A stretch of 64,000 nt of DNA from the IMG/VR virus record IMGVR_UViG_3300036772_000425, positions 138,924-202,923 of that record. One strand, given 5' to 3'. A program made the translations under genes and the position numbers. Below the pieces are notes generated by a model. The model was not told where the DNA came from, did not search any database, and saw only the letters and a list, made by a program, of their open reading frames with translations. Below, one piece after another: positions 36,217 through 54,581 of this stretch. Source of the stretch: a virus. Position 1 is the first letter of the stretch. Each line of letters opens with the position of its first letter.

Positions 36217-36837
36217 ATGGGCCAACGTGGACTGCTCGGAAGCTTGGTGATCGCGTTGGTGGTCGGCTGCTCCTGGACACCCCACGAACCCACGCAGCAT
36301 GCGCTGCTGAAGACCCACCACGTTCTTCGCCTGCACGGGGACGACACCTTCACCGGGCCTGAGCGTGAGATGGTGCAGGAAGCCGCGGACGACGTGTTCA
36401 TCCAGACGTCAGGCCTCCTGCAGGTCATCGTGAACTTCGATTTCGATTTCGACAGGTTGGGCCTGGACGCCTGGCTCACCCGCACCAACCTGCTGGTCCG
36501 GACACCGAAGGATGCCTCGTACGTGGTCTCACGCGAACGGACAGGGAAGGTCATGCTCGGGATGGTGGTGGGGGTGAACCTGCAGGACTACGATCAGACC
36601 GCGCCGATGCAGGTTCACCTGATCGCCGACAGGTTGACGGATCGGAAGGTCTTCATCCAGGTCGCTGAGCACGAGTTCTACCATGCCTTCGGCCTGAACC
36701 ACGTCAAGGATCCGCACAGCGTGCTGTACCCAGAGGTGTTCCTGCAGGCGCCTCGTACCTGCATCAGCGAGGCAGACGCAGCAGAGATCTGCAGGGTCTA
36801 CGGGTGTTGGACAGGCGACCTCAACACCTGCACCTGA
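36217..36837 (+). CDS. secreted zinc metalloprotease lipoprotein (metzincin-like, 206 aa)
   Basis: signal/lipobox LVIALVVGCS; HEFYHAFGLNH (HExxHxxGxxH). Confidence 0.75.
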   Translation: MGQRGLLGSLVIALVVGCSWTPHEPTQHALLKTHHVLRLHGDDTFTGPEREMVQEAADDVFIQTSGLLQVIVNFDFDFDRLGLDAWLTRTNLLVRTPKDASYVVSRERTGKVMLGMVVGVNLQDYDQTAPMQVHLIADRLTDRKVFIQVAEHEFYHAFGLNHVKDPHSVLYPEVFLQAPRTCISEADAAEICRVYGCWTGDLNTCT

Positions 36838-36849
36838 GATCAGGTCGTA

Positions 36850-37173
36850 TCATCCACGCTTGATGCCGCCGCCGTAGCTGAACGGTTGCGGCGCGGTGTC
36901 GACCTCGTACGGATCCACCTGGACGTACGGGACCTCCGCGGTCGGTGGGACAGGTCCGAAACAGTCCTCCCGATCGACGGTGGGCTCCCTGAGGTGCTCG
37001 GGCAACCCGTCCGGATCGTCGACGGTGTCCATCGCCTTGTTCGTCAAGGATCCGATCTGTTCACGGTCGTTGATGTCAGGCGACAGAGCGTTCCTGATCG
37101 GTTGGCCTGGGAACGCGGAGGCACCTGCCGCCTCACGGATCACCCTGCGCAGGTCTCCCAGCCTGATCCACAT
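36850..37173 (-). CDS. hypothetical protein (107 aa)
   Basis: ORF track. Confidence 0.4.
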   Translation of the reverse strand: MWIRLGDLRRVIREAAGASAFPGQPIRNALSPDINDREQIGSLTNKAMDTVDDPDGLPEHLREPTVDREDCFGPVPPTAEVPYVQVDPYEVDTAPQPFSYGGGIKRG

Positions 37174-37175
37174 GT

Positions 37176-37268
37176 ACTATGTAGGTCGTTCGGTGAGCCT
37201 GCGGCGCAGCAGACCGGCAGAGATCGCCAGGGAAGCAATGAACAGCACGATGATCAGACGTTCAATCA
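37176..37268 (-). CDS. tiny hydrophobic peptide (30 aa, MIERLIIVLFIASLAISAGLLRRRLTERPT)
   Basis: ATG overlapping upstream stop region; single TM helix; below track size cutoff. Confidence 0.3.
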
Positions 37269-37447
37269 TACCGTTTTCCCAAGGCCAGGTCGCGCAGGGC
37301 ACCCTGTAGCTGGTCCACCTGCCGCCGCAGCGCACGGTTATCGGTGTTCAATGCATCGCACCGCTCCTGGCATGCTCTCATGTTGGCACGCAGGTACACG
37401 ACCTCATCCAGCTCCCGCTTCAGGCGCAGCAGTTCCTCATCAGTCAT
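37262..37447 (-). CDS. small coiled-coil protein (61 aa)
   Basis: ATGA overlap with upstream gene; GGAGG SD; start moved to internal Met MTDEELL. Confidence 0.45.
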   Translation of the reverse strand: MTDEELLRLKRELDEVVYLRANMRACQERCDALNTDNRALRRQVDQLQGALRDLALGKRYD

Positions 37448-37794
37448 CCCTCCACCTCCGCAAAAACAGGTTTGATCGTGCACACCAGTCCGACCTTGCG
37501 CTCAGCGCGAGGAGGAACGCAAACGATGTAGCCCTTGATGAGATCGTTGAACAGCGGAACATGTGTCTTGAACCAGGCGGAGAGCCAGGTCCAGATCCAG
37601 TCTGATAACCGCTGTGCGCCCATCGGGACCCGGAACCATTGGTTCGCATCCGTGAGCCCAGGTTCCACCAGCAGGCTCAAGGTATCGTCCGTGAGACTGT
37701 AGCCCGTCGCTCGGTGGCGGCCCAGCACCATCAGCAGGACATCTTCCAGTTCCTTGCGGGAGCTGGCCTGCACCATCCCATTCACCAACCTCAT
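37444..37794 (-). CDS. hypothetical protein (116 aa)
   Basis: ORF track; divergent from 37839 gene. Confidence 0.5.
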   Translation of the reverse strand: MRLVNGMVQASSRKELEDVLLMVLGRHRATGYSLTDDTLSLLVEPGLTDANQWFRVPMGAQRLSDWIWTWLSAWFKTHVPLFNDLIKGYIVCVPPRAERKVGLVCTIKPVFAEVEG

Positions 37795-37838
37795 GCTCTG
37801 GTTGTAACTCGCGCACGTGTGTAGTACATCATGTTAAC

Positions 37839-38108
37839 ATGAGCTTTCCGAAGGTCAGGATCACAGCCAAGGTTCGTTGGTCCAAGCCTGAACGGATCGA
37901 GGCGGGGACGCTGATGTCCATGCTGGCCCCCGAGCTGGCGATCGGTCACAACCCGTGCACCAGCCCGGATCCGATCGACGGCACCCAGGAGCAGGTCGTC
38001 CTGGAGATCCTGGGCATCCGTCGGGCACCTCCGGGCACAGAGTTCACGCTTGAATCGTACGATGAGGTGCAGGCAGACCGGACGTTGGGGCACGGGGTGA
38101 TCCTGTGA
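37839..38108 (+). CDS. hypothetical protein (89 aa)
   Basis: ORF track; AT-richer divergent promoter region 37795..37838 (TTGTAA-N17-TACATC). Confidence 0.5.
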   Translation: MSFPKVRITAKVRWSKPERIEAGTLMSMLAPELAIGHNPCTSPDPIDGTQEQVVLEILGIRRAPPGTEFTLESYDEVQADRTLGHGVIL

Positions 38109-38380
38109 CCCGGTTCCTCGATCGGATCCACGTCGGACTGCACCGATTGGGCTGGCACAGGTTGGCCGCCGTCTTCGGGAGGATGACCGCGATGTTCTAC
38201 GGCGATCCGGGTCCGATCGTGCTGCCGCGGATGCCCGAACCCTTCCGATCATGGTCCCTCGTTGAACCACCGCCTGAGACGCTGCGCGTCCTGGAGTTCA
38301 AGCCCGGGCCGGAACAGAACCTTGGGTTCGACCCGGCGACCGAGATCATGGTCCCACAGCACCGCTTCGACATCAACTGA
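38105..38380 (+). CDS. hypothetical protein (91 aa)
   Basis: GTGA overlap. Confidence 0.45.
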   Translation: MTRFLDRIHVGLHRLGWHRLAAVFGRMTAMFYGDPGPIVLPRMPEPFRSWSLVEPPPETLRVLEFKPGPEQNLGFDPATEIMVPQHRFDIN

Positions 38381-38391
38381 GAAGGAGAAAA

Positions 38392-38694
38392 ATGGACACC
38401 GACAAGGCCCTTGAGTTCTGCATCGCCAGTTTCTTTTACGCGGCTGCCGCAGCAGTCGTCGCGATCGTGCTGTTCGGCGGCTACGCCATCGTGAGGTCAG
38501 CCAGTTCCACGGGTGAGGTTGACTATGACTACTGCTACATCGACACCCGGGCACCCGACAGGATGGCCCCGCAGTTCCTGCTGTACGGGCATCGCAACTG
38601 GCGCGCCGACAACGATATGGGCAGCTACCCCACCGCCGACAAGACGAAGGAGGCTGCTGATGCTGTCGGTTGCCGGATCGGGGTGTCCAAGTGA
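38392..38694 (+). CDS. membrane protein (100 aa)
   Basis: FFYAAAAAVVAIVLFGGYAIV TM; GGAGAAAA SD. Confidence 0.5.
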   Translation: MDTDKALEFCIASFFYAAAAAVVAIVLFGGYAIVRSASSTGEVDYDYCYIDTRAPDRMAPQFLLYGHRNWRADNDMGSYPTADKTKEAADAVGCRIGVSK

Positions 38695-38906
38695 GCGTTC
38701 CGGAAATCTTCTGCTGCATCGCAGCCGTGTTCGACATCATGATCTTCGTCTGGTTGGTGGGCACCTGGTTCTTCGAGGGCCACCACAAGCAGTGCAAGGT
38801 CGATGTGATCGCAACCTTCACCTGCGCCGAGTGCAAGAAGGAATTCGACGTAGAGACTGAGGTCGATTGCTCCGCATGTGCAGGGGGCCACGTCGAGGAA
38901 TCATGA
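38691..38906 (+). CDS. membrane protein with zinc-ribbon (71 aa)
   Basis: GTGA overlap; TM segment then CAEC...CSAC. Confidence 0.45.
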   Translation: MSVPEIFCCIAAVFDIMIFVWLVGTWFFEGHHKQCKVDVIATFTCAECKKEFDVETEVDCSACAGGHVEES

Positions 38907-39721
38907 CAGATCGGACCATCCTGATCGGCGACCTCCACGGCTGCGCCGACGAGGCGGAAGCGCTCCTCCGGAAGTTGCAGCCCACGGCGGCCGACTGGAT
39001 CGTCTGGTTGGGAGATTACGTCGATCGGGGCCCGAACAGCGTGGGCTGCGTGGACCTGGTCCGCAGGCGGGAACAGGTGCAGGGCCGCTGCGCCGGCATC
39101 CTTGGAAATCATGAAGAAAGGATGCTAGAGCATGAACAACGTGCCATGGAGCTGGGCCGTGAGCCTGAGATGCCCATGTCGCATGCCTTGACCCGTGCAC
39201 AGCTGCGGGACGAGCACTACGACTGGTTCAGGCAGCTCCCTCTCTTCCTGCGGATCCCTGAGCACAACGCGGTCGCGGTCCATGCCGGTGTCTTCCCAGG
39301 CCTGCCCATCGAACAGCAGACGCAGCGGACCCTGCTCCATGTCCAGATGCTGAAACCGTACGATGCAGAGGGCCGAGAGCTGTACAAGGACGGAAAACGA
39401 CACGATGCATCGTGCTGGGTCAGCAAGGTGCCCGCGGGTGAGGAGCACCTGTGGCGGTTCTGGACGCACTTCTACGAAGGTCCGGAAACGATCGTCTTCG
39501 GCCACAGCGTGTTCGACCGGCCCCTGATCACCCAGAACACGTTCGGGATCGACGGCGGGGTGCCCTTCGGCCTGCAGCTCCATGCGTTGGTCCTGCCCGA
39601 ACGCCGGATCGTCACCGTGAACTCTCCGAAGGACTACAGCAGGGCGACCCGCGGTAGCCGGAAGGATCCGATCCGGAACAAGCGGTTCTGGGTGCACGGC
39701 GACGTCCACACCTTCTCGTGA
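38903..39721 (+). CDS. Ser/Thr protein phosphatase, PPP family (lambda phosphatase/ApaH-like)
   Basis: ATGA overlap; metallophosphoesterase motifs GDLHG, GDYVDRG, GNHE. Confidence 0.8.
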   Translation: MTDRTILIGDLHGCADEAEALLRKLQPTAADWIVWLGDYVDRGPNSVGCVDLVRRREQVQGRCAGILGNHEERMLEHEQRAMELGREPEMPMSHALTRAQLRDEHYDWFRQLPLFLRIPEHNAVAVHAGVFPGLPIEQQTQRTLLHVQMLKPYDAEGRELYKDGKRHDASCWVSKVPAGEEHLWRFWTHFYEGPETIVFGHSVFDRPLITQNTFGIDGGVPFGLQLHALVLPERRIVTVNSPKDYSRATRGSRKDPIRNKRFWVHGDVHTFS

Positions 39722-39738
39722 ACACCCAGGAGACGACC

Positions 39739-40056
39739 ATGAAGTTTGAGTTCAGGTGCCCGAGCTGCGGTGCCCCGCCCAATGCATGCGGCAGGAAGTC
39801 GACCGACGTGTGCGAGGGCCGGCACCCCGAGGAACTGTGCATGGGTTTCATCTGCGAGTGCACCTCCGCTGAGGCCGACACCGATGGCCACGGTGAGCTG
39901 CTGAACAATCAGTGTCCTGAGGCCAGTTGCTACCATTGTGGATGGGGCGGAGTTTTTCCGAAGGCACCCAAGGGCATGCAGGCCTGGGAGAGGAAGGCTC
40001 TGGCCGCCGGATGGACGATGCCGCCGGCACGGAAGAAGGAGCTGGAGCACCGATGA
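39739..40056 (+). CDS. Cys-rich zinc-binding protein (105 aa)
   Basis: CPSCG...C..C...CEC...C..C; GGAGA SD. Confidence 0.5.
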   Translation: MKFEFRCPSCGAPPNACGRKSTDVCEGRHPEELCMGFICECTSAEADTDGHGELLNNQCPEASCYHCGWGGVFPKAPKGMQAWERKALAAGWTMPPARKKELEHR

Positions 40057-40328
40057 GGCCTGGGACACGGGTCAGGATGACCGATGACTACCGGTACCGA
40101 TCGTGGGGCCTATGCACCACGGGCATGCACACGGGTCCCATCGCCCTGAAGCATGGGAGGGTGCTGTGCACCGACTGCAACGGTGAACACATCGAAAGTT
40201 ACGGACACCTGGTGGGCACGGTGCAGGGCCCTGCTTGGGACCGCGATGACATGGTCGCCGTTGCCTGGGATCAGGGAGGTTCGGGTGCCTTCGCCTACTC
40301 GTGCTCGGACGTCATCGAGAGCTCCTGA
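40053..40328 (+). CDS. PG-motif small beta-barrel paralog
   Basis: ATGA overlap; MRPGTRVRMTDDY... Confidence 0.45.
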   Translation: MRPGTRVRMTDDYRYRSWGLCTTGMHTGPIALKHGRVLCTDCNGEHIESYGHLVGTVQGPAWDRDDMVAVAWDQGGSGAFAYSCSDVIESS

Positions 40329-40495
40329 AGGCGGGCGACCTCGTTGCCGTTCAGGCACCACATCGTCCCGATCAGCATGGTCACGATGCACAGAACCCTG
40401 TCCATCGACCCGGTTGGGACACAGTAGGCACAGCACACCGCTCCGATCAGGAGCAGCTTGCTGACCAGGTACCCCAACCGGGTCGGGCTCATCAA
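40295..40495 (-). CDS. small membrane protein (66 aa)
   Basis: ORF track; hydrophobic LLLIGAVCCAYCV. Confidence 0.4.
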   Translation of the reverse strand: MMSPTRLGYLVSKLLLIGAVCCAYCVPTGSMDRVLCIVTMLIGTMWCLNGNEVARLQELSMTSEHE

Positions 40496-40767
40496 AGCCG
40501 CCGGGTGACCCGACCTCGGGTCAGGTCGTACGGGCTCACGGCCAGCAGGATCCTGTCACCGGGCAGCAGCCTGATCCTGTGGATCCGCATCCTACCGCTC
40601 AGGGTGCAGATCACCTCGTGACCGGTGCTGCACTTGATCCGAAAGAGCGTCCCGGGTAGGGCCTCGACCACCGTCCCGTCAAGGTCGATGCGGTCCTGCC
40701 GCTCCTCCTCGTCGGTTGTCGACCCGTGCGCCCGGTTGCGTCCATTCCTGTTCTTCTTCATTCTCAT
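40492..40767 (-). CDS. infA: translation initiation factor IF-1 homologue with basic N-terminal extension
   Basis: DGTVVEALPGTLFRIKCSTGHEVICTLSGRMRIHRIRLLPGDRILLAVSPYDLTRGRVTRR aligns with bacterial IF-1 ([61 protein letters not shown]); start set to internal Met MRMKKNRNG. Confidence 0.7.
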   Translation of the reverse strand: MRMKKNRNGRNRAHGSTTDEEERQDRIDLDGTVVEALPGTLFRIKCSTGHEVICTLSGRMRIHRIRLLPGDRILLAVSPYDLTRGRVTRRL

Positions 40768-40945
40768 CTTCCTGGCTGGGTCCTCCCAAGCCTGGGGGCG
40801 GGTTGACCAGCGATGCCTCGCGGTCGGTGTTGGCCGACGATATGCCCCCGGTATCGTACATGCCAGCCTGGTGTCGCATGGTATCGTCGACACCGAACTC
40901 CTTGATCAGCAACCGTCGCAGGCGCCCCAGGGTGATCCTCATGGT

Positions 40946-41326: not shown

Positions 41327-41344
41327 GTGGCATCGGTGTTACAA

Positions 41345-41804: not shown

Positions 41805-41851
41805 GCTGTGGGGTGCACCGTCAGGTGCCTGCGAATAAACTCGTGAATGGT

Positions 41852-42079: not shown

Positions 42080-42085
42080 CTGTTG

Positions 42086-42340: not shown

Positions 42341-42343
42341 GTT

Positions 42344-42729: not shown

Positions 42730-42733
<4 letters not shown>
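42344..42733 (-). CDS. membrane protein (129 aa)
   Basis: ATGA overlap with GroEL stop; CWILLLLSVVLGSVLRLPVLGILTISV TM segments. Confidence 0.5.
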
Positions 42734-44385
<1,652 letters not shown>

Positions 44386-44416
44386 GCAAGCATACTAATG
44401 CAGAACGGGACGGTGT

Positions 44417-44674
44417 TCAGGCATCCTTGGTGACACGCAGCGGTACCGGCAGCCCCCGACGCCATGCCACCGCGACCAGGCCCAACCGGTAGTCCTCCAC
44501 CAGCGCTGTCAGGACAGCACGCTGCTGCGGATCCTGTGCCTGAGACAGGTAGATCAGCAGCTTCCGTTCCGTGAAATCGATCACGTTCGTGGGTTCGGTG
44601 GTACCGCAGTGCAGCTGGAACTCGGTGCACCTCTCGGTGCTGCGCGGGAACTGAGCTGCGTTGCGGGTCGCCAT
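44417..44674 (-). CDS. hypothetical protein (about 85 aa) in GroES position but not GroES-like
   Basis: internal Met; N-terminal 59 aa of track ORF are Arg-rich low complexity. Confidence 0.35.
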   Translation of the reverse strand: MATRNAAQFPRSTERCTEFQLHCGTTEPTNVIDFTERKLLIYLSQAQDPQQRAVLTALVEDYRLGLVAVAWRRGLPVPLRVTKDA

Positions 44675-44685
44675 CGCAAGCATAG

Positions 44686-44877
44686 CTAGGTGCCTGGACG
44701 ACCTTCCCGCTGGACGCGTCTCCCGGTCCTGTACCAGGGAACGAGCGCGGCAACGACCGCGCCGATGGCGCAACCGATCAGCAGCACGCTCGTGCCATCC
44801 TGTACCATGTTCATAAGTACCGCTTCGCTCAGGTCTTGTATCCCTTCCCAAGCACCTGTTTCCGAAGGGCCTGCCAT
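44686..44877 (-). CDS. possible small membrane protein (63 aa)
   Basis: ORF track; overlaps neighbour, weak. Confidence 0.25.
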   Translation of the reverse strand: MAGPSETGAWEGIQDLSEAVLMNMVQDGTSVLLIGCAIGAVVAALVPWYRTGRRVQREGRPGT

Positions 44878-45146
44878 CGTTTGAAGCTGCGATGACCGGA
44901 AGAATTGCGAGCCTCGATGATCTTGTCTGCGCGCCGCAACGACCTGAAATGCTTCCTGACCTCTGAGATTGAATGCATGCTCAGGTTGGGATAGTTCCCA
45001 CGAACTGTTGGAATTCCTTGCTGAGCTAACATCCGATACAACTCATATTCATGTTCTCGAGCAGATCGAGAGAGTTCAACTTCGTCCGGGCTTCTTTCGG
45101 CAGGCGCAACCTCGTCCTGTTTCTCGGCGACGGGTTCTGCCTTCAC
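44829..45146 (-). CDS. hypothetical basic protein (105 aa)
   Basis: ATGA overlap with AAA+ ATPase stop. Confidence 0.5.
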   Translation of the reverse strand: MKAEPVAEKQDEVAPAERSPDEVELSRSAREHEYELYRMLAQQGIPTVRGNYPNLSMHSISEVRKHFRSLRRADKIIEARNSSGHRSFKRWQALRKQVLGKGYKT

Positions 45147-46525
45147 CCGTCGCCGGCGAGAGGGACCGGTTCGGTGTCAGGGGCATCGTCGTCCAACAGA
45201 TCGCCGATGGGCACCGAGGCGGTCGCTGCAGGAACAGCTCCGGAAGCGACAGCGGCCATCGCTTCCAGTTCACGTGCCCGTTCCAGCAAGACCATCATCC
45301 GGTTGATGTCACGATGATCTTCATCATCGTCACCGGAGAGCTCGTTGACCCTCTCCGTCAGCTCGACCATCGATCGTGAAGCTTCATCAGGGTCCATGAA
45401 CTTCCGACGCTTCACGTACTCGTTGATGAAAGCAATGGGCCAGTCCTTGACCAGCTCGAAAGCATCATCGTACTCGTCAAGGACATGGTGCACCACCTCA
45501 GCGTCCATCTTGTCGATGCAGACCAGTTCATCGATCCGGCCCGGTCGCTTCAGCGCAGTCTCCAACCGACCGCGGTTGTTGACGGTGGTGAAGATCAGCT
45601 TCACCTTCTCCTGGAAGAACTCCATGGTTTCCAGGAGGTCGCCCTGCGCATGGGCCCGATCGAAGTCGTCCATGATGACCACGTCAGGTTCGAAGATGTT
45701 GATAGCCTCGAACAGGGTCCCGTTGTCCAGACTCTGGAGGTCTGAGATCCGGATCCGGAAGCTCCGGAGGCCCATCAGCTCCACGATGGTCCGGGCCAGG
45801 GTCGATTTACCGGTCCCGGGCGGACCGTAGAACATCACGGACCTGCTGACGCCCTCAGCCAGTGGTCGCTTCAGGTACTCTGCGTAGCTGACGGCGCGGG
45901 CGGAGAGCTTCGACTGGAAATCATCGTCGATCTCGAAGATGATGTGCTCCTCGGCACGGGACGTGAACATGCCCGACCGATCGCTCTTCCGCATCAACAA
46001 CGATTTTCCAGAAAACTGCTCCCACAGCTGGGCCTTGATGTAGGCCCGGGCTGCGTCCAGGTGTTGAGCGTCCACGTAGATCCGTTCCACGTTCTGCTGG
46101 CGCCCACGGTAGGTCCAGCCGCACCGGATCCCACCGGGCAGGGTGCAGATCCGGATGAAGGTATGCTCTTCCGAGGTCTTGAAGCGCTCGTACGGATGAC
46201 GGACGAGGACGCTGAGCAAGGTTTGGGTGAAATCTGAGCTGTATGCCTCGCACCACTCACTGGTGGCGAAGTAGTCCTCCGACCACACCTCGGAATCCTC
46301 GACCATGATCTTTCCCATGCCGAAGATCGACTGGGCTCCCGCCCACCAGGTCGGCTTCTCCAGGAAGGGCGACATGGCACCGAACAGTTCGGTGCCAAGG
46401 ACGAACAACCGTTTCACGCGGGTGCTGCTCAGGTACAGCTGCACCTGTCGCAGGAAAGGCGCTTCAGTGTTCACCATGAGGTGAGGATCCTGGTTCGGAT
46501 CCATTGGAACTCGATTCTTCTTCAT
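45143..46525 (-). CDS. AAA+ ATPase (460 aa)
   Basis: Walker A FYGPPGTGKSTLARTIV, Walker B VVIMDDFDRA, sensor/Arg finger region LKRPGRIDE; large N-terminal non-ATPase domain. Confidence 0.85.
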   Translation of the reverse strand: MKKNRVPMDPNQDPHLMVNTEAPFLRQVQLYLSSTRVKRLFVLGTELFGAMSPFLEKPTWWAGAQSIFGMGKIMVEDSEVWSEDYFATSEWCEAYSSDFTQTLLSVLVRHPYERFKTSEEHTFIRICTLPGGIRCGWTYRGRQQNVERIYVDAQHLDAARAYIKAQLWEQFSGKSLLMRKSDRSGMFTSRAEEHIIFEIDDDFQSKLSARAVSYAEYLKRPLAEGVSRSVMFYGPPGTGKSTLARTIVELMGLRSFRIRISDLQSLDNGTLFEAINIFEPDVVIMDDFDRAHAQGDLLETMEFFQEKVKLIFTTVNNRGRLETALKRPGRIDELVCIDKMDAEVVHHVLDEYDDAFELVKDWPIAFINEYVKRRKFMDPDEASRSMVELTERVNELSGDDDEDHRDINRMMVLLERARELEAMAAVASGAVPAATASVPIGDLLDDDAPDTEPVPLAGDG

Positions 46526-46557
46526 CCCTTGCCTTTCGGGCAGTTGGCGACCGTGAC

Positions 46558-47238
46558 CTAGAAATCGATCGGTTGGGCATCGTACGATGCCGCACGACCC
46601 AACGAGAACTCACCGTTGCTCCTGTCGCACAGGAGCTCGACAGACTGTTCGATGATCCCTTGCCGCCGTGCAGCGAACTGCAGGCTGCGGCTCGCGGCCC
46701 ACAGGACACGTGGGTTGGGCATCTCCCCCACACGCTTCTGGCACCTGAAGAAACCCTTCTTGGCGTCCTTCACCATCCACCATCCGCCGGTGTGGTCCTG
46801 AGATTCGTATCCCTGCTTGAGGAAATCGTCCACTCCTTGGCGCAACGGTAGCGGGACGGTGAGCCACAGTTTCTCATGCTTCACGCATGTCACCACGTAG
46901 TCGATGAAATCCTTCCAGGCCCGGTGCTGGCGGTCCCACTCCCTCTCGGGATCCTCGTAGAACCCGATGCAGGATTCCATGAAGACCTTCGGCCCGCACA
47001 CGATACCAACCTCGATCCCTTCCGGGAAGGGACTGTCAGCCCTATGTGACTCATTGCGCATGTGAAGGACATGGAGGATGGGTCGTCCGCAGCAGGCACA
47101 CCTGCTGTTCCCGTAGTGGAAACCGCTGATGGTCCATGACCCAGCCTCGATCAGGGATCGAAAGTTCTTTCCAGAACCTGTGTAGTGCTTGCCCGCCGCC
47201 GCGGCGACCAGCACGTCATGCTGCTGCTTGGACTCCAT
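46558..47238 (-). CDS. hypothetical Cys/His-rich protein (226 aa)
   Basis: ORF track; CACCGRP, C..C motifs. Confidence 0.55.
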   Translation of the reverse strand: MESKQQHDVLVAAAAGKHYTGSGKNFRSLIEAGSWTISGFHYGNSRCACCGRPILHVLHMRNESHRADSPFPEGIEVGIVCGPKVFMESCIGFYEDPEREWDRQHRAWKDFIDYVVTCVKHEKLWLTVPLPLRQGVDDFLKQGYESQDHTGGWWMVKDAKKGFFRCQKRVGEMPNPRVLWAASRSLQFAARRQGIIEQSVELLCDRSNGEFSLGRAASYDAQPIDF

Positions 47239-47243
47239 GTTCT

Positions 47244-47978
47244 TTACCTCGTCTCGAAGGCGAGCGCCAACTGCAGGCCCTCACTGTTGCACGGGTGTCC
47301 CTCAGAGTACCAATACTCAATGCGGCCGCGGTTGGACACGGTGACGATCGATGATGACAAGGTGCCCGACCCACCATCGGGTTCGTGCGCGCATACCGAG
47401 TGTCGGGTACCCAGGTCATGGCCGTGCGATGCCAGGAGCTCGTAGAGCCTGTCCACGATGGGATCGATCCCATCGCTTTCAGAGACTGCACCGGCGGCGC
47501 GCCACTGCGTGTCCCAGGCCTTCTGTGAATCCGGATCGAACCGACGGTTGGTGATCACGTGGGTGCCCGGATGCAACTCCTCCTTGTACCGGTTGTCGCT
47601 CATGATGAAGCGCTCCATCCTGCACGGCATGCCGTAGATCAGCTCGAACTTGCCGAACTCCTTGGCCCCCAGGCTCGCGCAGTAGTTCTGGACTCCGTAC
47701 ACGGTGCCGATGCTGAGCACGTCGGTGATCAGTTTGCCGCGGGAGCGTTCGCCGGGCGGCGAGCTCCAATCATCCTCGACCACGTTGGTCAGGGCAGCGA
47801 AGAACCCATCCCGATTGATCGCGAACCACGTACCGTCGGCGTCCAGATCCCACGGTCTGGCGATCCCATCGACCAGGGTGGGTCGACCCGTCCGCCTGCC
47901 GAACCGTTCATCACGGTTCCCAGCGACGACGAGCGGGTACCCAGGGACGATATCGTTCAGCACGATCAGTGTGCACAT
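47244..47978 (-). CDS. TANGO2/NRDE-family protein (DUF833)
   Basis: N-terminal MCTLIV...VVAGNRDE hallmark of NRDE/TANGO2 family. Confidence 0.75.
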   Translation of the reverse strand: MCTLIVLNDIVPGYPLVVAGNRDERFGRRTGRPTLVDGIARPWDLDADGTWFAINRDGFFAALTNVVEDDWSSPPGERSRGKLITDVLSIGTVYGVQNYCASLGAKEFGKFELIYGMPCRMERFIMSDNRYKEELHPGTHVITNRRFDPDSQKAWDTQWRAAGAVSESDGIDPIVDRLYELLASHGHDLGTRHSVCAHEPDGGSGTLSSSIVTVSNRGRIEYWYSEGHPCNSEGLQLALAFETR

Positions 47979-47998
47979 GGATCACCCGTCCTCATTCC

Positions 47999-48178
47999 TT
48001 GCACAGGCACCGCCGGACAAAGATGCCCCAGAACAGGAGGACGGTGACGATGGACAGCTGGACGACGGGTCCGAACACGTCGTACGCCACGATGCTGGCG
48101 ACGGCGAGGAACGCCGCACCGCCCCACATCAGCGCCTCTGCCTGCTCGAACGTCAGCACCCGAAACCTCATGCTGTTC
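47999..48178 (-). CDS. small membrane protein (59 aa)
   Basis: manual translation MRFRVLTFEQAEALMWGGAAFLAVASIVAYDVFGPVVQLSIVTVLLFWGIFVRRCLCKE; below track cutoff. Confidence 0.3.
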
Positions 48179-48368
48179 CTCCTCGTTCTTCCAGATGTTT
48201 CAGGATGACCTTCAGCTGCTCGTGCGCCGGGTTGTGCGCCACCTCGAACTTCTCGGTGAAGCCCATGAGCACGTAGATCCGATCGATCCCACCTGCGAAC
48301 GCGTCCATCTCTGCCAGGGCCATCCTCAGCTGCGTCCGGGTGAATGCAATGCGACGTTCAGGTGTCAT
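48168..48368 (-). CDS. hypothetical protein (66 aa)
   Basis: ORF track; overlaps neighbours. Confidence 0.4.
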   Translation of the reverse strand: MTPERRIAFTRTQLRMALAEMDAFAGGIDRIYVLMGFTEKFEVAHNPAHEQLKVILKHLEERGGTA

Positions 48369-49302
48369 ACGCCTCCATCAACCGCCTGCCGAGCCTCTTC
48401 AGGTACCGTGGACCGTACTTCGGGTTGCCTTGAGCCTCCAGGTCCCGTTCCAGGAACTTGGGCAGGACCTCATCCTGGTGCCTGCATGAGGCGATACCCC
48501 AGGCGACGGCCGCAACGGAGTCAGTGTCACCGCCCCATTCGATCACCTTCCTCATGATGCCCATGAGGGACGTTTCCTGCCGCAGCAAGGTACACACTGC
48601 CCAGGCGGTGTTCATGCCCACGTCGTACCCACCTTCCTTGCTCCGATCCACCCGGCCCTCCCAGGGGGTGCTCAGGAATTCGAGCCCATGGAGGTGTTGG
48701 TTCATCCAACCCAGGCACTCCGAGAATTCGAGCGATTCGTAGAGTGCAAAGTGGCTCAGCATGGCCACGATGATGGCGCTCTCGCAGCCTTCCTGGGTGT
48801 TGTGCGTCACCGCAGCCTGCTCACGGGCCGCAGTGATCACCATGTTGGGTGAGAACAGGACGCCGAGCGGGACCGCGCGCATGGCGGCACCGTTCTTCGT
48901 GGAATTCGGGATGATCCTGCGGCGCATGTCCTCGTGCGAGGTGGACTCCTCCAGGATCTTCTGGAACCCTCGGCTGTACCCGTCGCGCGGATCCCGCTTG
49001 AAGGCGTTGAAGAAGTGCGGATAGTAGTTCTCCTTCTGCAGGAAGTACGGGTACGAATGCCTGTGCGTCTTGGTCCCCGAGCTCAGCAACAGGAGGTCAG
49101 CGATGGCCAAACTCATCTGGCAATCGTCTGTGTACATTCCGGGTCGAAGCTTCAAGTGTGTTGGATGTTGTTGGTACGAATCAAAACGTTCGACAGCTGC
49201 GAAAAGCTTTGGGTGTTCTTCACGCTTCACGTACTCAACGGCTGACGCAAAAGCGTCAGCCTGAGCGATCCTGAGCAGCATGTTGTCGTTTGGGTTCTTC
49301 AT
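48358..49302 (-). CDS. ADP-ribosylglycohydrolase (ARH/DraG family)
   Basis: N-terminal LLRIAQADAFASAVEYV and C-terminal GGDTDSVAAVAWGIA motifs typical of ARH fold. Confidence 0.8.
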   Translation of the reverse strand: MKNPNDNMLLRIAQADAFASAVEYVKREEHPKLFAAVERFDSYQQHPTHLKLRPGMYTDDCQMSLAIADLLLLSSGTKTHRHSYPYFLQKENYYPHFFNAFKRDPRDGYSRGFQKILEESTSHEDMRRRIIPNSTKNGAAMRAVPLGVLFSPNMVITAAREQAAVTHNTQEGCESAIIVAMLSHFALYESLEFSECLGWMNQHLHGLEFLSTPWEGRVDRSKEGGYDVGMNTAWAVCTLLRQETSLMGIMRKVIEWGGDTDSVAAVAWGIASCRHQDEVLPKFLERDLEAQGNPKYGPRYLKRLGRRLMEAYDT

Positions 49303-49314
49303 CTAATGCTCCAT

Positions 49315-49782
49315 TCAACGTGGCAGCTGGCGATCGTTGTACGCGTCGGCGAAATCCGCCATGGAATCGGCCGTGTCCCGGATGTCACACAGGAGTTGGA
49401 TCCCGAACCTGATGGCAGGCACGAATGGGCGCAGGACGAGCCTGACCTTGGAGCTGGATTCGACGATCCGGTCCAGGTCGTCCGAGTCCAGGTGCACCGT
49501 CCGCCGGTCGCGGTTCCGCCGGTACAGGGTGATGACCTGCGCGGTCACTGTCAACCCCTCCAGGAACCCGTAGCGTTCGTCCCACGCCTCGTTGCATGTA
49601 TCGCAGGGACTCTCGAAGACCTGTTCCGTCGGAGAGTCGAACTCGTTCTGACCGAACCGGACGGTCCCGGTGCAGGAGGTGCCGGCGCAGCACGAATCCC
49701 GTCCGCAGCAGCCCGGAAAGGACAGGTGGGTCCGGTACTGACCTGCGTAGAGCTTACGTAACTTCTGGTTTGCTGGGTCCAT
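49315..49782 (-). CDS. hypothetical Cys-rich protein (155 aa)
   Basis: ORF track; CCGRDSCCAGTSC. Confidence 0.5.
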   Translation of the reverse strand: MDPANQKLRKLYAGQYRTHLSFPGCCGRDSCCAGTSCTGTVRFGQNEFDSPTEQVFESPCDTCNEAWDERYGFLEGLTVTAQVITLYRRNRDRRTVHLDSDDLDRIVESSSKVRLVLRPFVPAIRFGIQLLCDIRDTADSMADFADAYNDRQLPR

Positions 49783-50377
49783 GTTTTTCCTTGCGCGCCC
49801 TCAGACGTGAGATGATACGATCACGGTACTTGGTCGTGGTCCGGACCTCGTTGTTGAGGACGGAAGCCTTCTCAAAGAAGTACAGCTCGTCGCGGCCTTC
49901 AGCACGGCCAGCAGCGGTGTGGTGATCCAGGGCGTAATCAGGGATGCAGAACCCGGGCCCGGTGCCCTCGATGCGCTGCAGCATGTCAGTCAGCATCTCA
50001 TCGACGAGCCGTGACTTGGAGCTGCGCGCCAGGTACACCGCCACGAAGCTGACGACCAACTTCCCACCCACGTACCCGGGCGGGAGGCTGTCGAAGAAGC
50101 GCCGGCAGTTCATCACCGTGTTGATGGCGTTCGGGTCGGCGATCCCTACGTCCTCCAGTGCACAGATCGTAAGTGATTCCCACATGAAATCCACGGCCTC
50201 GGCGCCCGACACCAGCATCTGGTTGGCCCAATGGAGCGCGTTCTCCTCGTTTCCGAGGCGAATCTCCTTGATCAGGGCTGACAGGACCTCCGCCAGGATG
50301 TAGCGCCCGTCTGGCGTGGTGCTCCTGTTCCAGTCGGGCCGTCGGGATGCCTGCGTTTTGAAGACGATGTTGTTCAT
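49754..50377 (-). CDS. MgsA/WRNIP1 C-terminal-domain-only protein (no AAA+ module)
   Basis: ALHWANQMLVSGAEAVDFMWESLTICALEDVGIADPNAINTV matches MgsA C-domain ALYWLARMLEAGEDP...ASEDIGLADPQAL; no Walker motifs. Confidence 0.55.
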   Translation of the reverse strand: MNNIVFKTQASRRPDWNRSTTPDGRYILAEVLSALIKEIRLGNEENALHWANQMLVSGAEAVDFMWESLTICALEDVGIADPNAINTVMNCRRFFDSLPPGYVGGKLVVSFVAVYLARSSKSRLVDEMLTDMLQRIEGTGPGFCIPDYALDHHTAAGRAEGRDELYFFEKASVLNNEVRTTTKYRDRIISRLRARKEKHGPSKPEVT

Positions 50378-50694
50378 AGACGACCCTTATTGCTGAAGAC
50401 GAAGAAGGGTCGGGTGCTCTCGTTGTAGGCGGGCTTGTCGTAGTCCACTTGCCAGCCCGCCGCCCTGTACAGGTCCTCCACATCGAGGAGGTGACGCTTG
50501 TAGATCTCGTCCTTGGTCAGGTGCATGCGTTCTGAGACCAGCTGTGCAGCCTCGTCCTGTTGGACGCAGGCGCTGTTGTTTGACCATTCCTTGGCGATCA
50601 GCTCGTTGAAGACCTGGATGATCTCATCCGGGATGTTCTGCGCCCTGGTCTGCTTGATCTCTGCGGGCGTGATGGGCTTGACGTTCCTGCTCAC
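50374..50694 (-). CDS. hypothetical protein (106 aa)
   Basis: ATGA overlap. Confidence 0.45.
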   Translation of the reverse strand: MSRNVKPITPAEIKQTRAQNIPDEIIQVFNELIAKEWSNNSACVQQDEAAQLVSERMHLTKDEIYKRHLLDVEDLYRAAGWQVDYDKPAYNESTRPFFVFSNKGRL

Positions 50695-50948
50695 TGTTCT
50701 GACCTTTCGTAGATGACCGCATTGTCCCAGCGCCGGATCGGGTAGCTCCGTTCCAGCCTCCCTCGGTTCCGTTCCCAGTGCCTGACGTTGTCGGGTGATA
50801 CCGGTTCCGGTTTGACCAACAACCGAGCGTCGTTCCCCTCGATCACCTGGGTGATGGTGGCGAGGCGCATGTAGGTGCTGCTCCCGTAACGTTGCGGGTA
50901 GGCAATGCGGTCACCCACCCGGAACTGCTTGCCGGTCACGTCGTTCAT
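50691..50948 (-). CDS. KOW-like small protein (85 aa)
   Basis: internal Met; KQFRVGDRIAYPQRYGSSTYMRLATITQV. Confidence 0.4.
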   Translation of the reverse strand: MNDVTGKQFRVGDRIAYPQRYGSSTYMRLATITQVIEGNDARLLVKPEPVSPDNVRHWERNRGRLERSYPIRRWDNAVIYERSEQ

Positions 50949-51056
50949 CCTCAGCCGTTCCTTGCCTGCAAGGCGATGGTCAGGACGGCGACGAAAACAG
51001 CAGGTGCCAGGCACAGCATGCCGAACCAGAAATTGCTCATCTCAGTGGATCCTCTT

Positions 51057-51371
51057 TCATCCCCAGCGTTTGTGGGGAACCCTGTTCTGCTCAACTGTGC
51101 CGGCGAGGGCTTCGTTGAGGCACTCGGCCGCACTTTCCAAGGGATCTTGGCTGCGGCTGAGACGGTTGTACTTCCAGCCCTGCGTTTTTCGATCCGCATC
51201 GTTGCAGATCGTTGCGAGCTGTTCGTCGAGCCATGCTCCGACAGACAGGGTGAGCCTCATGCTTGCACCCATGGCGTAGTTCTCAGGCCGGCCGACGAAC
51301 CAGGGCGCAAGGAGCCGATCCATGTCGGGCACGACGCTGTCGTTGACCAGGGTTCCGGTCCAGCGGATCAC
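51057..51371 (-). CDS. hypothetical protein (104 aa)
   Basis: ORF track. Confidence 0.45.
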   Translation of the reverse strand: MIRWTGTLVNDSVVPDMDRLLAPWFVGRPENYAMGASMRLTLSVGAWLDEQLATICNDADRKTQGWKYNRLSRSQDPLESAAECLNEALAGTVEQNRVPHKRWG

Positions 51372-51607
51372 TCGGGTGATTCCTCGAAGATCTCGTTGTC
51401 AACCTGCACCGCGATCGCCTGGAGCTCGTACGCCTCCAGCACGGCGATGAACCTGTTCGTCTCCGCGGAGAACGTGACGTTGCCGGTGTAACCCGTGTTC
51501 CGTTTCCACGCGATCGCAGCTCGAAGCACGTCCTTCCCAGTCACCTTCTTTTCATGGAAGAAGCTCATTTGGACGATCCGCGATCGTAGGTTTCCATCCA
51601 GTCGCAC
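51368..51607 (-). CDS. hypothetical protein (79 aa)
   Basis: ATGA overlap. Confidence 0.45.
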   Translation of the reverse strand: MRLDGNLRSRIVQMSFFHEKKVTGKDVLRAAIAWKRNTGYTGNVTFSAETNRFIAVLEAYELQAIAVQVDNEIFEESPE

Positions 51608-51792
51608 AGCCTCTGCTGATCACCGCTCTGCAGCGCATCCCGAAGCTCGTCGGCCATCTGGCGCTCCTGCTTACGTGCATCGCTGTTGAACTTTGAGAGC
51701 CATGTGACAAGCTGTACGGTGCACGTGCTGGCGCCGATCATGAGGCTCAACAGGGCGAGGAGTTTCCCAACAATCACCTGCTCATCGTCCAC
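51565..51792 (-). CDS. small membrane protein (75 aa)
   Basis: ORF track; LLALLSLMIGASTCTVQLVTWL. Confidence 0.35.
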   Translation of the reverse strand: MDDEQVIVGKLLALLSLMIGASTCTVQLVTWLSKFNSDARKQERQMADELRDALQSGDQQRLCDWMETYDRGSSK

Positions 51793-51811
51793 CGTTACAC
51801 GGTGGATGTAT

Positions 51812-52114
51812 TCACAGTGCGTTCTTGTGCTGATTCAGAAGGTCGTCGTCCTCGTCGATGACCATGTCTGCGATGCGCTCGTCGAGCCGATCCTTCAGCC
51901 CACGGTCCAGCGATCCGAGCTCAGAATCGTTGAGGAGGCGGATCCTCTGCAGCTCCGGCAGGTCACCCTCGGTGAGGGCCACGTCGATCTGTTTCTTCAG
52001 CGCGCTGAGACGGTTCCGACGCCTGCTCGCCCGTGACAGGAAGAAGATGGTTGTGAAGAGGACGATGCTCGGGACGAGCACCCCTCCGAACCCGACGATG
52101 ATCTCCCATGTCAT
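51812..52114 (-). CDS. membrane protein (100 aa, N-terminal TM)
   Basis: ATGA overlap with HEG stop; MTWEIIVGFGGVLVPSIVLFTTIFFL. Confidence 0.5.
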   Translation of the reverse strand: MTWEIIVGFGGVLVPSIVLFTTIFFLSRASRRRNRLSALKKQIDVALTEGDLPELQRIRLLNDSELGSLDRGLKDRLDERIADMVIDEDDDLLNQHKNAL

Positions 52115-52821
52115 ACCTGCACCTCCGGGACCGTTACGTGCAACCAAGTTTTGCCTTTGATGATGCCAAGCACGGTGAGATCAGTCACCCCAAATTTCGC
52201 AGCATAGAAAATGCATGCTGATTTGATCGTTGGGAACTCATTGAAGCTAGTTTTCACCTCGATGACTTGTGTTGTTGTCAACTTTGAGAGATTCGATTTT
52301 TCACCTCGATTCAAGGGAGACGAACGCAACCCTGCTGAAATTCGCTGTCTAGTGTTATCAGAAACATTCGCTCCCCATCGTGGGTTCTTCTCTCCACACA
52401 TTTTCCCCTGAAGTGAAGAACTGATATTTGCTCGTTGTTCAGGTGAACGTTTCTTCCCCCAGGATGGGTGCTTGGAACCACGATGATCGTGTTTGCCCTT
52501 GTTGGCTTCAGACAACTTCTGACGGTGTTCTAGACTTTTTGGGACGCCCGCCCTCTGACCAGCACCACCAGGGTTTTTGTTAGCGCCCCAACCCTTGCTG
52601 GCTTCTGTTTTGAAATGACTGATCAGGAACTTTTCACACCGCAATGTGGTTTCATGTTCAAAAGACTCGAACATGATTGTTCTGTGACTGCCGTACAAGT
52701 TGACGTAGTAGTCATGTAAATCACTACGATGAAGTCCGTTAACTCGACCTCGAGTGCCTTTTCCAACGTAGAAAGGTCTGGGTTCTGGTTCATCTGTCCA
52801 GTCTACGTACACGTATAGCAT
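52111..52821 (-). CDS. GIY-YIG homing endonuclease with NUMOD3 repeats (copy 1)
   Basis: YVYVDWTDEPEPRPFYVGKGTRGRV GIY-YIG core; repeated G.KHS.E..KIS motifs; start set to Met aligned with copy 2 (track ORF extends to 52950 over Fpg gene). Confidence 0.7.
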   Translation of the reverse strand: MLYVYVDWTDEPEPRPFYVGKGTRGRVNGLHRSDLHDYYVNLYGSHRTIMFESFEHETTLRCEKFLISHFKTEASKGWGANKNPGGAGQRAGVPKSLEHRQKLSEANKGKHDHRGSKHPSWGKKRSPEQRANISSSLQGKMCGEKNPRWGANVSDNTRQRISAGLRSSPLNRGEKSNLSKLTTTQVIEVKTSFNEFPTIKSACIFYAAKFGVTDLTVLGIIKGKTWLHVTVPEVQV

Positions 52822-52822
52822 G

Positions 52823-53653
52823 CTACGTTTGACAAATACGACACCAATGTGTCGTTCGTCCATCTGCCGTGATCTCTCGTTCAACAGAATGTCCTTGTGC
52901 ATCACGATCTCGATCGTACACACGGAAGCCAAATTGAGCTTGGCCAGCACTGCCGTCCACGTTCTTGTATGAACGTAGCGTGGCTCCTTTTGATTCGTAT
53001 GAAGATCGCATCACATCGATCGTATGTTCATGAAGCAAGACAATTTCAGCCGCTGTCAGGCTATTCACAATTCGATGTGGTGAAATCCCACTACGATGTA
53101 TACATTCTGCCTTCACGTAATTGCCCACGCCGCTGACCACCGACTGGTCCATCAGGGCCTCCACGACCGTCTTCCCGTCACGGTGGTACAGGCGATCCAG
53201 GAACTCCAGCACAGTGGGTGGGGAGTTCAGCATGTCGGGGCCCAGTGTGCTCAGCTTCTTCGCCAGTGCCTCCCGGCCCTTGACGAACTTCAGGGTACCG
53301 AAGTGCCGCTGGTCGTTGAAGTGCACGCTGGGCATGCAATCTTCCAGAATGCCGACCCGGTCGGTGCCGTGGGTCACCGACAGCGCCGAGTGGGGCGACC
53401 GTGTGGGTTCCCACTGCCCTGACATCCCGTAGGTGCACCACAACGACCAGTCCGGACCCAACGTCCAGTACATGAACTTGCCCTTCACGTCGATGCCGCG
53501 GACGATGCTCGCCCCACGATCCTGCCGCATCTCGTGCATGAACTGTTCCAGGCCGTCGGGCTGCCTGTCACGGTACCGCCCTCCGGGCCGATCGATCGAC
53601 ACGATGCGGCGACCGACCAGGATCCCACGTAGCTGATCGCGGCTCCTGGCCAA
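52823..53653 (-). CDS. Fpg/Nei-family DNA glycosylase (N-terminus atypical/uncertain)
   Basis: H2TH motif DQSVVSGVGNYVKAECIHRSGISP and C-terminal CRIC zinc finger; TTG start in track; in-frame upstream codons encode PEGPELARS (PELPEVE-like) without an obvious start. Confidence 0.7.
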   Translation of the reverse strand: MARSRDQLRGILVGRRIVSIDRPGGRYRDRQPDGLEQFMHEMRQDRGASIVRGIDVKGKFMYWTLGPDWSLWCTYGMSGQWEPTRSPHSALSVTHGTDRVGILEDCMPSVHFNDQRHFGTLKFVKGREALAKKLSTLGPDMLNSPPTVLEFLDRLYHRDGKTVVEALMDQSVVSGVGNYVKAECIHRSGISPHRIVNSLTAAEIVLLHEHTIDVMRSSYESKGATLRSYKNVDGSAGQAQFGFRVYDRDRDAQGHSVEREITADGRTTHWCRICQT

Positions 53654-53732
53654 CTCAGGTCCCTCAGGCGTATCGTTACCCTCCTTCCTCTGTGCAGAAA
53701 ATTGTCGAACCCATGGTTGGGTGTCCCAGGCA

Positions 53733-53762
53733 AGGGTATCATATGATTGATGGAGGTTTCAC
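53733..53762 (-). promoter_or_regulatory. phage promoter GTGAAAC-N17-TACCCT upstream of Fpg/Nei gene
   Basis: motif on minus strand in divergent intergenic region. Confidence 0.4.
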
Positions 53763-54581
53763 ATGATGAGGATGTTGACAGCGCTCACGTTCATGAGCGT
53801 CGTGGGGTCGGTGGGTTGCGCCGGGGTGCCGAAGCACCTGGACGATGCAGGTAGGGCGGAGCGGGCACGGGATTCCGCTGTCTCCCTGGTGAAGTGGGGG
53901 ATCAGGGGCGAGGACGGGTTGGTCGAGGTCCCGCGCGGCACCCGAGGCGCGAAGCTGGTGGCGCACTGTTCCGGGGTCTGGGTCTCACAGGACACCTTCC
54001 TGACGGCCGGGCACTGCGTGGAGGACACCGGAGAACCCGCGTCAGATCCGTTGGCCCGGATCCTGGAGCGGCTCAGCGGTTTCAAGGTGCACTGGGATCC
54101 GTCCGGGCAGACCGTGCACTTTGCCATGCACGGTGACATCCAGGTCGGCAGGGTGCACGACAACGAGACCGTCCGCACGGGTAGGATCATCGGTTACGAA
54201 AGGACGGCTGACCTGGCACTGGTGCAGCACCTGCCCGAGAACGCGGACCTGGCCCTGCCTGACCATACGATCGTCAGGATCGCATCCGAGGTCAGGGTTG
54301 GCGAGGAGGTCGACGTGGTCGGTAACCCGCTCGGGCTCGAATGGAGCTACACCCGTGGATGGGTCTCTGCCCTGAGGCCCCGTTCGCTCGGCCCGCGCGA
54401 CGGTCGGGTCAACGCGGTCCAGATCTCAGCTCCCGTCTGGTTCGGATCCTCCGGAGGCCCTGCCTTGAACCACGAGGGCGAGCTCGTCGGCATCGCCTCC
54501 TGGGTGCAGGATGGGCCCAGCCTGGGATTCTTCGTGGACCCGTCGACGATCAGGGGCTTCCTGGCGCGGGCAACGCACTGA
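53763..54581 (+). CDS. secreted trypsin-like serine protease (S1 family), probable lipoprotein
   Basis: signal/lipobox VVGSVGCAG; His LTAGHC, Asp, Ser GSSGGP catalytic triad motifs; GGAGG SD. Confidence 0.8.
   Translation: MMRMLTALTFMSVVGSVGCAGVPKHLDDAGRAERARDSAVSLVKWGIRGEDGLVEVPRGTRGAKLVAHCSGVWVSQDTFLTAGHCVEDTGEPASDPLARILERLSGFKVHWDPSGQTVHFAMHGDIQVGRVHDNETVRTGRIIGYERTADLALVQHLPENADLALPDHTIVRIASEVRVGEEVDVVGNPLGLEWSYTRGWVSALRPRSLGPRDGRVNAVQISAPVWFGSSGGPALNHEGELVGIASWVQDGPSLGFFVDPSTIRGFLARATH

Follow-up and report, generated by a model that had tools for sequence, protein, structure and literature searches.

Proteins that act on the bacterial envelope, among them endolysins, spanins and exclusion lipoproteins, are central to phage lysis and to competition between phages, and they have been mined as antibacterial tools. 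The closest described counterpart of the genes considered here is the Mtz-Tim cassette of Listeria monocytogenes (LMRG_00713/00714), a phage-derived pair consisting of a secreted metzincin and a lipoprotein, which alters the cell wall and enhances phage-mediated lysis (PMC8235301). The present analysis concerns two genes in a stretch of 64,000 nucleotides from IMG/VR virus record IMGVR_UViG_3300036772_000425 (positions 138,924 to 202,923; hereafter the window, to which coordinates refer unless a locus is named), one encoding a metzincin-fold zinc protease and the other a serine protease of family S1 (PA clan), both of them predicted lipoproteins. The likeness to Mtz-Tim lies in a two-gene cassette of phage origin that combines an exported metzincin (HExxHxxGxxH/D motif and Met-turn) with a lipobox-bearing lipoprotein. 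In Listeria, however, the metzincin has a signal peptidase I (SPI) signal and its partner is a TIMP-like lipoprotein, either substrate or inhibitor (PMC8235301), whereas here the metzincin would itself be the lipoprotein and its partner is an S1 serine protease; the Listeria system differs further in its Gram-positive pathogenic host and in its association with temperate phages. Metzincin-fold proteins are known in insect viruses and a few phages and thus a phage metzincin as such is not unprecedented, but a search of the literature on lipoprotein proteases of huge or jumbo phages found no description of an S1-metzincin pair.

The main new result is that the S1 protease and the metzincin are encoded by a recurrently linked pair of genes. 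At two related loci (L003 and L006) the S1 gene is followed directly by an open reading frame (ORF) of the metzincin-lipoprotein family, and a survey of 64 S1 loci with hidden Markov models and jackhmmer found a metzincin within 10 kb in 18 of them, the window itself being excluded. They follow one another on one strand in the manner of an operon, separated by -15 to +24 bp, at L003-8, L030/34, L039, L043/45, L062/68, L063 and L087. A search seeded with the metzincin yielded 14 IMG/VR loci, in eight of which an S1 gene lies immediately upstream, and added L099, L100 (340 kb) and L105 (472 kb) to the loci with the pair. Adjacency recurs in about ten divergent viral lineages; among the nine recovered by S1 seeding the identity of the S1 proteins is 25-60%, and the GC content of the loci across the adjacency lineages ranges from 30 to 62%. 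Neither protease family has a model of its own in Pfam or NCBIfam.

That the two genes stand side by side in some ten lineages suggests that their products probably work together on the host envelope. The reading favoured here, to which we would give a probability of about 0.6, is that they are two exported proteases, anchored to a membrane and coupled in their action, which cleave proteins of the host envelope in the course of infection. Both proteases would be exported through Sec, the lipobox cysteine of each would be lipidated, and both would remain bound to a membrane, on its periplasmic or cell-wall side, in the infected bacterium. There they would act as a functional pair, the product of a two-gene cassette that is conserved in many large viral genomes and split by 17 kb in this one, and would cleave envelope proteins while infection proceeds, most likely so that the envelope is loosened or re-tailored and the release of progeny is made easier. 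The purpose is the weakest step. Even within this reading, an aid to egress is a tentative choice, favoured because of the precedent of Listeria Mtz-Tim, which is the sole experimental one (PMC8235301); receptor shedding or superinfection exclusion follows it as a slightly less probable purpose, envelope proteostasis is a distinctly weaker candidate, and the rest of the probability falls to other purposes.

The metzincin gene (36217-36837, + strand) encodes a protein of 206 residues beginning MGQRGLLGSLVIALVVGC; its GC content at third codon positions (GC3) is 0.83 and a Shine-Dalgarno sequence, GGAGGG, lies 5 nt upstream of the ATG. A signal peptide with its lipobox makes up residues 1-18 (Cys18 codon at 36268-36270), the zinc motif HEFYHAFGLNH occupies residues 152-162 (36670-36702) and four cysteines are found towards the C-terminus, at 182, 192, 197 and 205. 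A tblastn search against phages gave no match and a word-indexed protein search recovered only the protein itself, so that it looked like an orphan, a status overturned by exhaustive HMMER searching, which found 343 cluster representatives at E<1e-3 (97 of them below 1e-10), proteins of about 200 residues that match from end to end. Residues were tallied across 153 of these relatives. The His, Glu and His of HExxH are present in every one, the third zinc ligand is His in 148 and Asp in 5, the Gly of the motif is kept in 134, and the Met-turn position is held by Met in 140 and by Leu in 12. The lipobox cysteine is found in 124 of the 125 sequences that could be aligned there, each of the four C-terminal cysteines in between 126 and 139 of the 153, and a further motif, HxDxxFxxxER, is conserved in the N-terminal part of the family.

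This protein resembles the matrixins in sequence only in the active-site helix, in the turn and in the last helix. Pfam Peptidase_M10 (PF00413) scores 31.1 bits against a cut-off of 24, over residues 143-196 only (profile positions 105-159 of 159), and phmmer matches to the PDB are confined to residues 146-196 (E ~0.003). An AlphaFold2 model built with the family alignment has a predicted local distance difference test score (pLDDT) of 90.7 and a predicted template modelling score (pTM) of 0.83, a single-sequence model (pLDDT 31) having been discarded, and its top Foldseek matches are all metzincins (MMPs, karilysin and fragilysin), no one family standing out; on this model the metzincin catalytic-domain fold is predicted to be present. 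The extended motif HExxHxxGxxH/D is complete, with all three zinc ligands, the catalytic Glu and the Gly intact, but Leu170 (36724-36726), in the sequence SVLYP, aligns with the Met-turn Met of MMP-7 (AVMYP); the family has the methionine that is typical of metzincins, and the window copy is a Leu variant of it. A cysteine-switch prodomain motif (PRCGxPD) is absent from the sequence, and between Cys18 and the first strand of the model there is room for only about 16 residues. Since no single family stands out structurally and there is no space for a prodomain, the protein is placed in a distinct compact metzincin family. It is unlike the matrixins and bacterial MMP-like enzymes (MEROPS M10A, including karilysin) and snapalysin (M7) in having no Cys-switch prodomain, in the lack of any sequence match over its N-terminal two-thirds, and in its lipoprotein anchor, its four C-terminal cysteines and its Leu in place of the Met-turn Met.

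The S1 gene (53763-54581, + strand) encodes 272 residues, beginning MMRMLTALTFMSVVGSVGC, has a GC3 of 0.84 and is preceded by a GGAGG Shine-Dalgarno sequence 6 nt upstream of its ATG. The lipobox cysteine is Cys19 (codon 53817-53819), and the catalytic triad consists of His84 (54012-54014), Asp150 (54210-54212) and Ser230 (54450-54452), the protein containing both LTAGHC and GSSGGP. Pfam recognises it as Trypsin_2 (76.6 bits, cut-off 27.6) and Trypsin (40.6 bits). Thirty-seven proteins are homologous to it, many of them encoded on contigs of 190-470 kb, and in an alignment of 20 of the proteins (26-38% identity) Cys19, the three triad residues, Cys69 and Cys85 are invariant; the last two bracket the catalytic His in the manner of the His-loop disulfide of chymotrypsin. 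The trypsin-like assignment made in an earlier note on this DNA is therefore upheld, and in both families the catalytic residues are conserved in alignment (the S1 triad in 20 of 20, the metzincin HExxH in 153 of 153).

In a profile search of solved structures the protease domains of HtrA, DegP and DegQ (MEROPS S1C) were nearest to the S1 protein (E 5e-19), with which they share the PA-clan fold, a GNSGG-type serine motif and an envelope location, the last as predicted for the S1 protein. The S1 protein differs from them in its lipoprotein anchor and in an S1A-like TAGHC motif with the His-loop cysteine pair. No match to a PDZ domain was found in it, the protease domain ending at about residue 250 of 272, and its best scores against the NCBIfam HtrA models, 63.6 and 61.7 bits, are far under the respective cut-offs of 450 and 416. 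A tblastn search against phages returned only weak DegP-like matches and PADLOC only a generic trypsin-domain match. Scanning IMG/VR with the single S1 protein gave no match, but an alignment-based scan succeeded, with 88 relatives, many on contigs of 100-470 kb, and the suggestion that secreted proteases are rare in phages fails for this family. A pattern scan of 185,579 species-representative genomes produced one match, a 626-residue multidomain protein on a contig of a metagenome-assembled genome, which does not belong to the family. Because 88 viral relatives are set against this sole non-family match, the S1 family looks virus-restricted, within a sensitivity limited by the pattern used, and both protease families appear to be confined to viral contigs.

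The lipoprotein signals were assessed with a rule in the style of PROSITE PS51257, which asks for a positively charged n-region, a hydrophobic h-region and a lipobox whose terminal cysteine is 15-35 residues from the start. Four proteins of the window pass from their first ATG, namely the metzincin, the S1 protease and two further putative lipoproteins of 181 and 79 residues. In a six-frame control 17 of 2,352 possible ORF starts passed, and, when the four genes with their alternative starts are set aside, almost all of these lack a hydrophobic core; with so few passing, the signal is not a matter of chance. Among the 64 strong S1 relatives 39 satisfy the strict rule, and most of the others have a hydrophobic N-terminus followed by a cysteine (LPAC, VTC). 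The signal peptides and lipobox cysteines reported for both proteases are supported by the rule and by the conservation of the cysteine in the two families, although the term secreted is misleading, as both enzymes would be membrane-anchored lipoproteins rather than freely released. Both families also have conserved cysteine pairs, as would suit an oxidising compartment outside the cytoplasm. Asp at position +2 occurs in no member of either family, and in Escherichia coli lipoproteins without Asp at +2 go to the outer membrane; on that basis both proteases would be sorted there, although the E. coli rule may fail in the present host. The earlier statement that the lipoboxes confirm a bacterial host is reasonable as a deduction and falls short of proof. 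Known phage lipoproteins such as the o-spanins (Rz1), T5 Llp and Cor are likewise phage-encoded, with a signal peptidase II (SPII) signal and a lipobox, and act on the envelope at lysis or against superinfection, but they are small and non-enzymatic, and no i-spanin-like partner lies beside any of the four lipoprotein genes described here.

The surroundings of the two genes differ from one clade to another. In the clade of the window the S1 gene stands beside genes for Fpg and an HhH-GPD glycosylase, the latter being found within 5 kb of it in 20 loci and Fpg in 9. It is a lone + strand unit amid - strand genes, separated from the divergent Fpg/Nei gene by an intergenic region of 109 bp (53654-53762) that holds the GGAGG ribosome-binding site, and a scan around it detected no sigma-70-like promoter and no intrinsic terminator. 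A gene for a 104-residue protein (54550-54864, - strand), kept in 14 related loci, converges on it and shares about 30 nt with its 3' end. The metzincin gene keeps both of its flanking genes in L012, and in L013 it is the metzincin and not the S1 gene that lies beside Fpg and GroEL. Where the genes adjoin, a third one may at times belong to the cassette: a C39-like cysteine peptidase is encoded directly upstream of the pair in L006 (9383-9871, + strand) and L030 (9345-9887, + strand), and a 77-residue lipobox protein (LLVGC) upstream of it in L043 (9666-9899, + strand). Among 143 cassette neighbours scanned with Pfam no partner recurs except the C39 peptidase, in those two lineages. In staphylococci aureolysin activates the V8 serine protease SspA, which in turn activates the cysteine protease SspB. 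The L006 and L030 loci resemble this cascade, by gene order only, in linking metallo-, serine and cysteine proteases that would be exported, but the families differ and here there are no evident prodomains in need of activation. It was also observed that in AT-richer relatives the cassette is flanked by long tandem arrays of ORFs of about 110-130 residues (L003 11353-15747 and L006 12197-18209, both on the - strand), the clustered paralogues of which are rich in cysteine (e.g. CDYCNNPC...).

A number of considerations weigh against the coupled-pair reading. Lipidation is inferred from sequence patterns. The leucine at the Met-turn may cost the window metzincin some of its stability or activity. 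Within the window 17 kb lies between the two genes, which belong to different transcription units, and adjacency is seen in just 7 of the 45 S1 clusters (within 10-kb flanks). No lysis gene recurs among the 143 cassette neighbours, so that the egress purpose is without guilt-by-association support. Finally, hallmark genes (capsid, portal, terminase) were seen neither in the 64-kb window nor in the 10 kb past either end, and for that reason the window's assignment to a huge phage is a well-supported inference and not a demonstration; the evidence for the earlier description of the genes as phage-encoded is likewise indirect.

Of the three roles proposed in the earlier note, remodelling of the host envelope fits the evidence best. 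The nearest alternative, which is nevertheless unlikely, is that the pair serves in receptor shedding or superinfection exclusion, the anchored proteases clipping those parts of receptors (pili, porins, TonB-dependent transporters) that are at the surface or in the periplasm and so blocking adsorption of other phages or of progeny virions to the infected cell. It draws on the same structural evidence; in addition the cassette moves among unrelated genomic contexts like an accessory module and the S1 gene is a transcription unit of its own. Phage lipoproteins such as T5 Llp and the Cor proteins of phi80 and N15 are classic exclusion factors, and the infection cycles of huge phages are long. However, literature searches found no exclusion factor of the protease type, nor do we know of one, and there is no link to receptor-binding or tail genes. 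It is quite improbable that the two proteases are instead a quality-control pair supplied by the phage, one HtrA-like and the other BepA-like, that maintains the function of the periplasm once host expression has been shut off, in complement to the GroEL, AAA ATPase and translation initiation factor IF-1 also encoded in the window. HtrA, DegP and DegQ are indeed the nearest solved relatives of the S1 domain, but HtrA proteases sense their substrates through the PDZ domain that the S1 protein lacks, its scores of at most 64 bits compare with NCBIfam cut-offs of 416-450, and the TAGHC and cysteine pair of its N-terminal barrel are S1A-like and not HtrA features. Ranking just after this is the suggestion that the window metzincin is a pseudo-protease or binding protein, its role being confined to binding or regulating the S1 protease or some target in the host. 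Its Leu170 stands where the great majority of relatives (140/153) keep Met, but all of the zinc ligands, the catalytic Glu and the Gly are intact, and the presence of Leu in a further 12 of the 153 suggests a tolerated variant; Met-to-Leu replacements in MMP-2 and in serralysin-type enzymes retain activity.

The remaining explanations are far less probable. That the proteins are moron-type virulence or host-fitness factors, or that the contig is not from a phage and has a cellular or other mobile-element origin, would suit the lone opposite-strand position of the S1 gene and the lack of structural genes in the window and its 10-kb flanks. Against this very slender possibility, up to 20 related loci have the S1 gene in the same position, its 88 relatives are on contigs that IMG/VR classes as viral, and the family was absent from the 185,579 species genomes in the pattern scan. 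Homing endonucleases, a phage lysozyme and a phage-type GroEL are present in the window, and only 13 PHROG and seven Pfam families are matched by its 108 other proteins. As to virulence in particular, synteny is kept in the relatives and the nearest, which is the sole relative with a habitat label, is on a contig labelled ZJ_forest. The least credible of all is maturation of the virion or prohead. In its favour, prohead proteases are found in large phages and the two proteins belong to protease families, but the lipobox cysteine is invariant in the aligned S1 proteins and nearly so in the metzincins and, together with the disulfide-type cysteines, places both outside the cytoplasm, where capsids assemble; processing of virion proteins is thus unlikely because export is incompatible with it, and neither gene lies near structural genes. 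The interpretation given in the earlier note is in sum partly supported, as regards the protease homologues and an envelope role, and unsupported in its virion, moron and rarity claims. The ORFs and motifs that it listed are real, though several details need amendment.

Two of these details concern the other putative lipoproteins. The 181-residue protein, MKMNLTVALLALAFAGC, has the LAFAGC lipobox attributed to it, with Cys17 and an Asp at +2, but its gene is at 28294-28839 (+ strand), 7.4 kb outside the interval to which it had been assigned. It belongs to PHROG 24725 and has homologues of 30-45% identity in Synechococcus phage S-SRM01, Clostridium phage phi3626 (gp45) and the Vibrio Thalassavirus phages, the lipobox cysteine being kept in three of four aligned sequences. 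In the jumbo cyanophage S-SRM01 (L009 72942-73421) the family member adjoins an SPFH 'membrane protease subunit' gene, and in the window the gene is 1.7 kb upstream of a gene for an 887-residue MVP/SPFH protein; this lipoprotein-SPFH pairing may be a second envelope module. The small protein encoded at 54905-55144 (- strand, GC3 0.86), described as secreted and containing six cysteines, exists as a gene, which was called independently and at the same size in the Logan assembly, but its 79 residues include five cysteines, four in the mature part. As the other, Cys18, belongs to a canonical LAAC lipobox, the protein is a putative lipoprotein and not just secreted. It is an ORFan, with no homologue in 96 related loci. 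Its identification as an o-spanin was rejected because it has no i-spanin partner, its neighbours being the HhH-GPD glycosylase and the 104-residue protein, which has no transmembrane segment.

The window has a GC content of 62% and about 120 short, tightly packed genes with a strong third-position GC bias, and 108 otherwise unannotated proteins yielded the 13 PHROG and seven Pfam family matches. The same DNA is present on a 340,433-bp Joint Genome Institute contig and on Logan contigs of run SRR11832861, while megablast of the 36-56 kb region against 50,697 phage records gave no near match. A huge-phage-like genome of about 340 kb is a well-supported source, on account of the contig size, the IMG/VR relatives, the density of ORFans, the homing endonucleases and the phage lysozyme. 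A conserved block on the - strand (42730-50377) encodes GroEL, an AAA ATPase, TANGO2/NRDE, an ADP-ribosylglycohydrolase and an MgsA_C-like protein, and the window from 42.7 to 64 kb is syntenic with the ZJ_forest contig (345,630 bp; block at L002 202-6897), to which identity is 70% for GroEL and 58% for the AAA ATPase. The best tblastn identity of GroEL is only 48% and gives no clue to the host. The IF-1 homologue (40492-40893, - strand; PF01176, 2.5e-21) has an N-terminal extension of about 70 residues in the longest-ORF call, the whole protein being 89 residues long in the Logan gene call, and genes for RF-1 and ribosomal protein L12 are present on related contigs. A metallophosphatase gene is also recognisable, and the single tRNA gene of the window is a tRNA-Met (CAT) at 4281-4356 (- strand).

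Around the S1 gene is a DNA-repair and nucleotide-hygiene cluster, all on the - strand, which comprises the Fpg/Nei glycosylase (52823-53653), the HhH-GPD (MBD4-like) glycosylase (55157-55618), in favour of which a gene call at 55362-55625 (+ strand) was dropped, a NUDIX hydrolase (57825-58454) and a 5'-3' exonuclease (60893-61873). Just past the right end of the window the same genome (L094 6213-7016) has genes for a member of the Thg1-like tRNA-His guanylyltransferase family and for a second NUDIX protein. Three homing endonucleases of the GIY-YIG/NUMOD3 type lie between conserved genes, at 52111-52950 (- strand), where the 3' end of the Fpg ORF is overlapped by about 130 nt, at approximately 57114-57887 (+ strand) and at 59882-60694 (+ strand). 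In a 388-residue protein (58750-59916, - strand) the N-terminal domain (residues 13-137, 1.4e-41) is a phage lysozyme and the C-terminal part, of about 250 residues, matches no family; in the syntenic L002 the lysozyme is a separate protein of 221 residues beside a C1/C39_2 peptidase. The 887-residue MVP/SPFH protein (30572-33235, + strand) contains a major-vault-protein shoulder (PF11978, 5e-29), a Vault_3 repeat and an SPFH/Band_7 domain, and in IMG/VR locus L024 the gene for a homologue with 57% identity is some 8 kb away from the S1 gene. A vault/SPFH-like protein is unusual in a phage-like genome.

The S1-metzincin pair takes its place among the accessory proteins with which phages act on the envelope as a conserved and apparently virus-specific pair of lipoprotein proteases. 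A bolder proposal, which for the present must be considered doubtful, is that it constitutes a previously unrecognised, virus-specific envelope-attack module of large phages. Such a module, no less speculatively, would use proteolysis to strip off or penetrate the outer layers of the host or to shed its receptors, beside or instead of spanins, and would be mobile as a cassette between phages of very different hosts. Both families are useful annotation markers for the genomes of huge phages, which consist largely of ORFans. If it is true that the pair cuts envelope proteins, it would add a proteolytic mechanism to the means by which phages manipulate and breach the envelope, and would provide compact enzymes (~190-250 residues) to try as envelope-sensitising agents.

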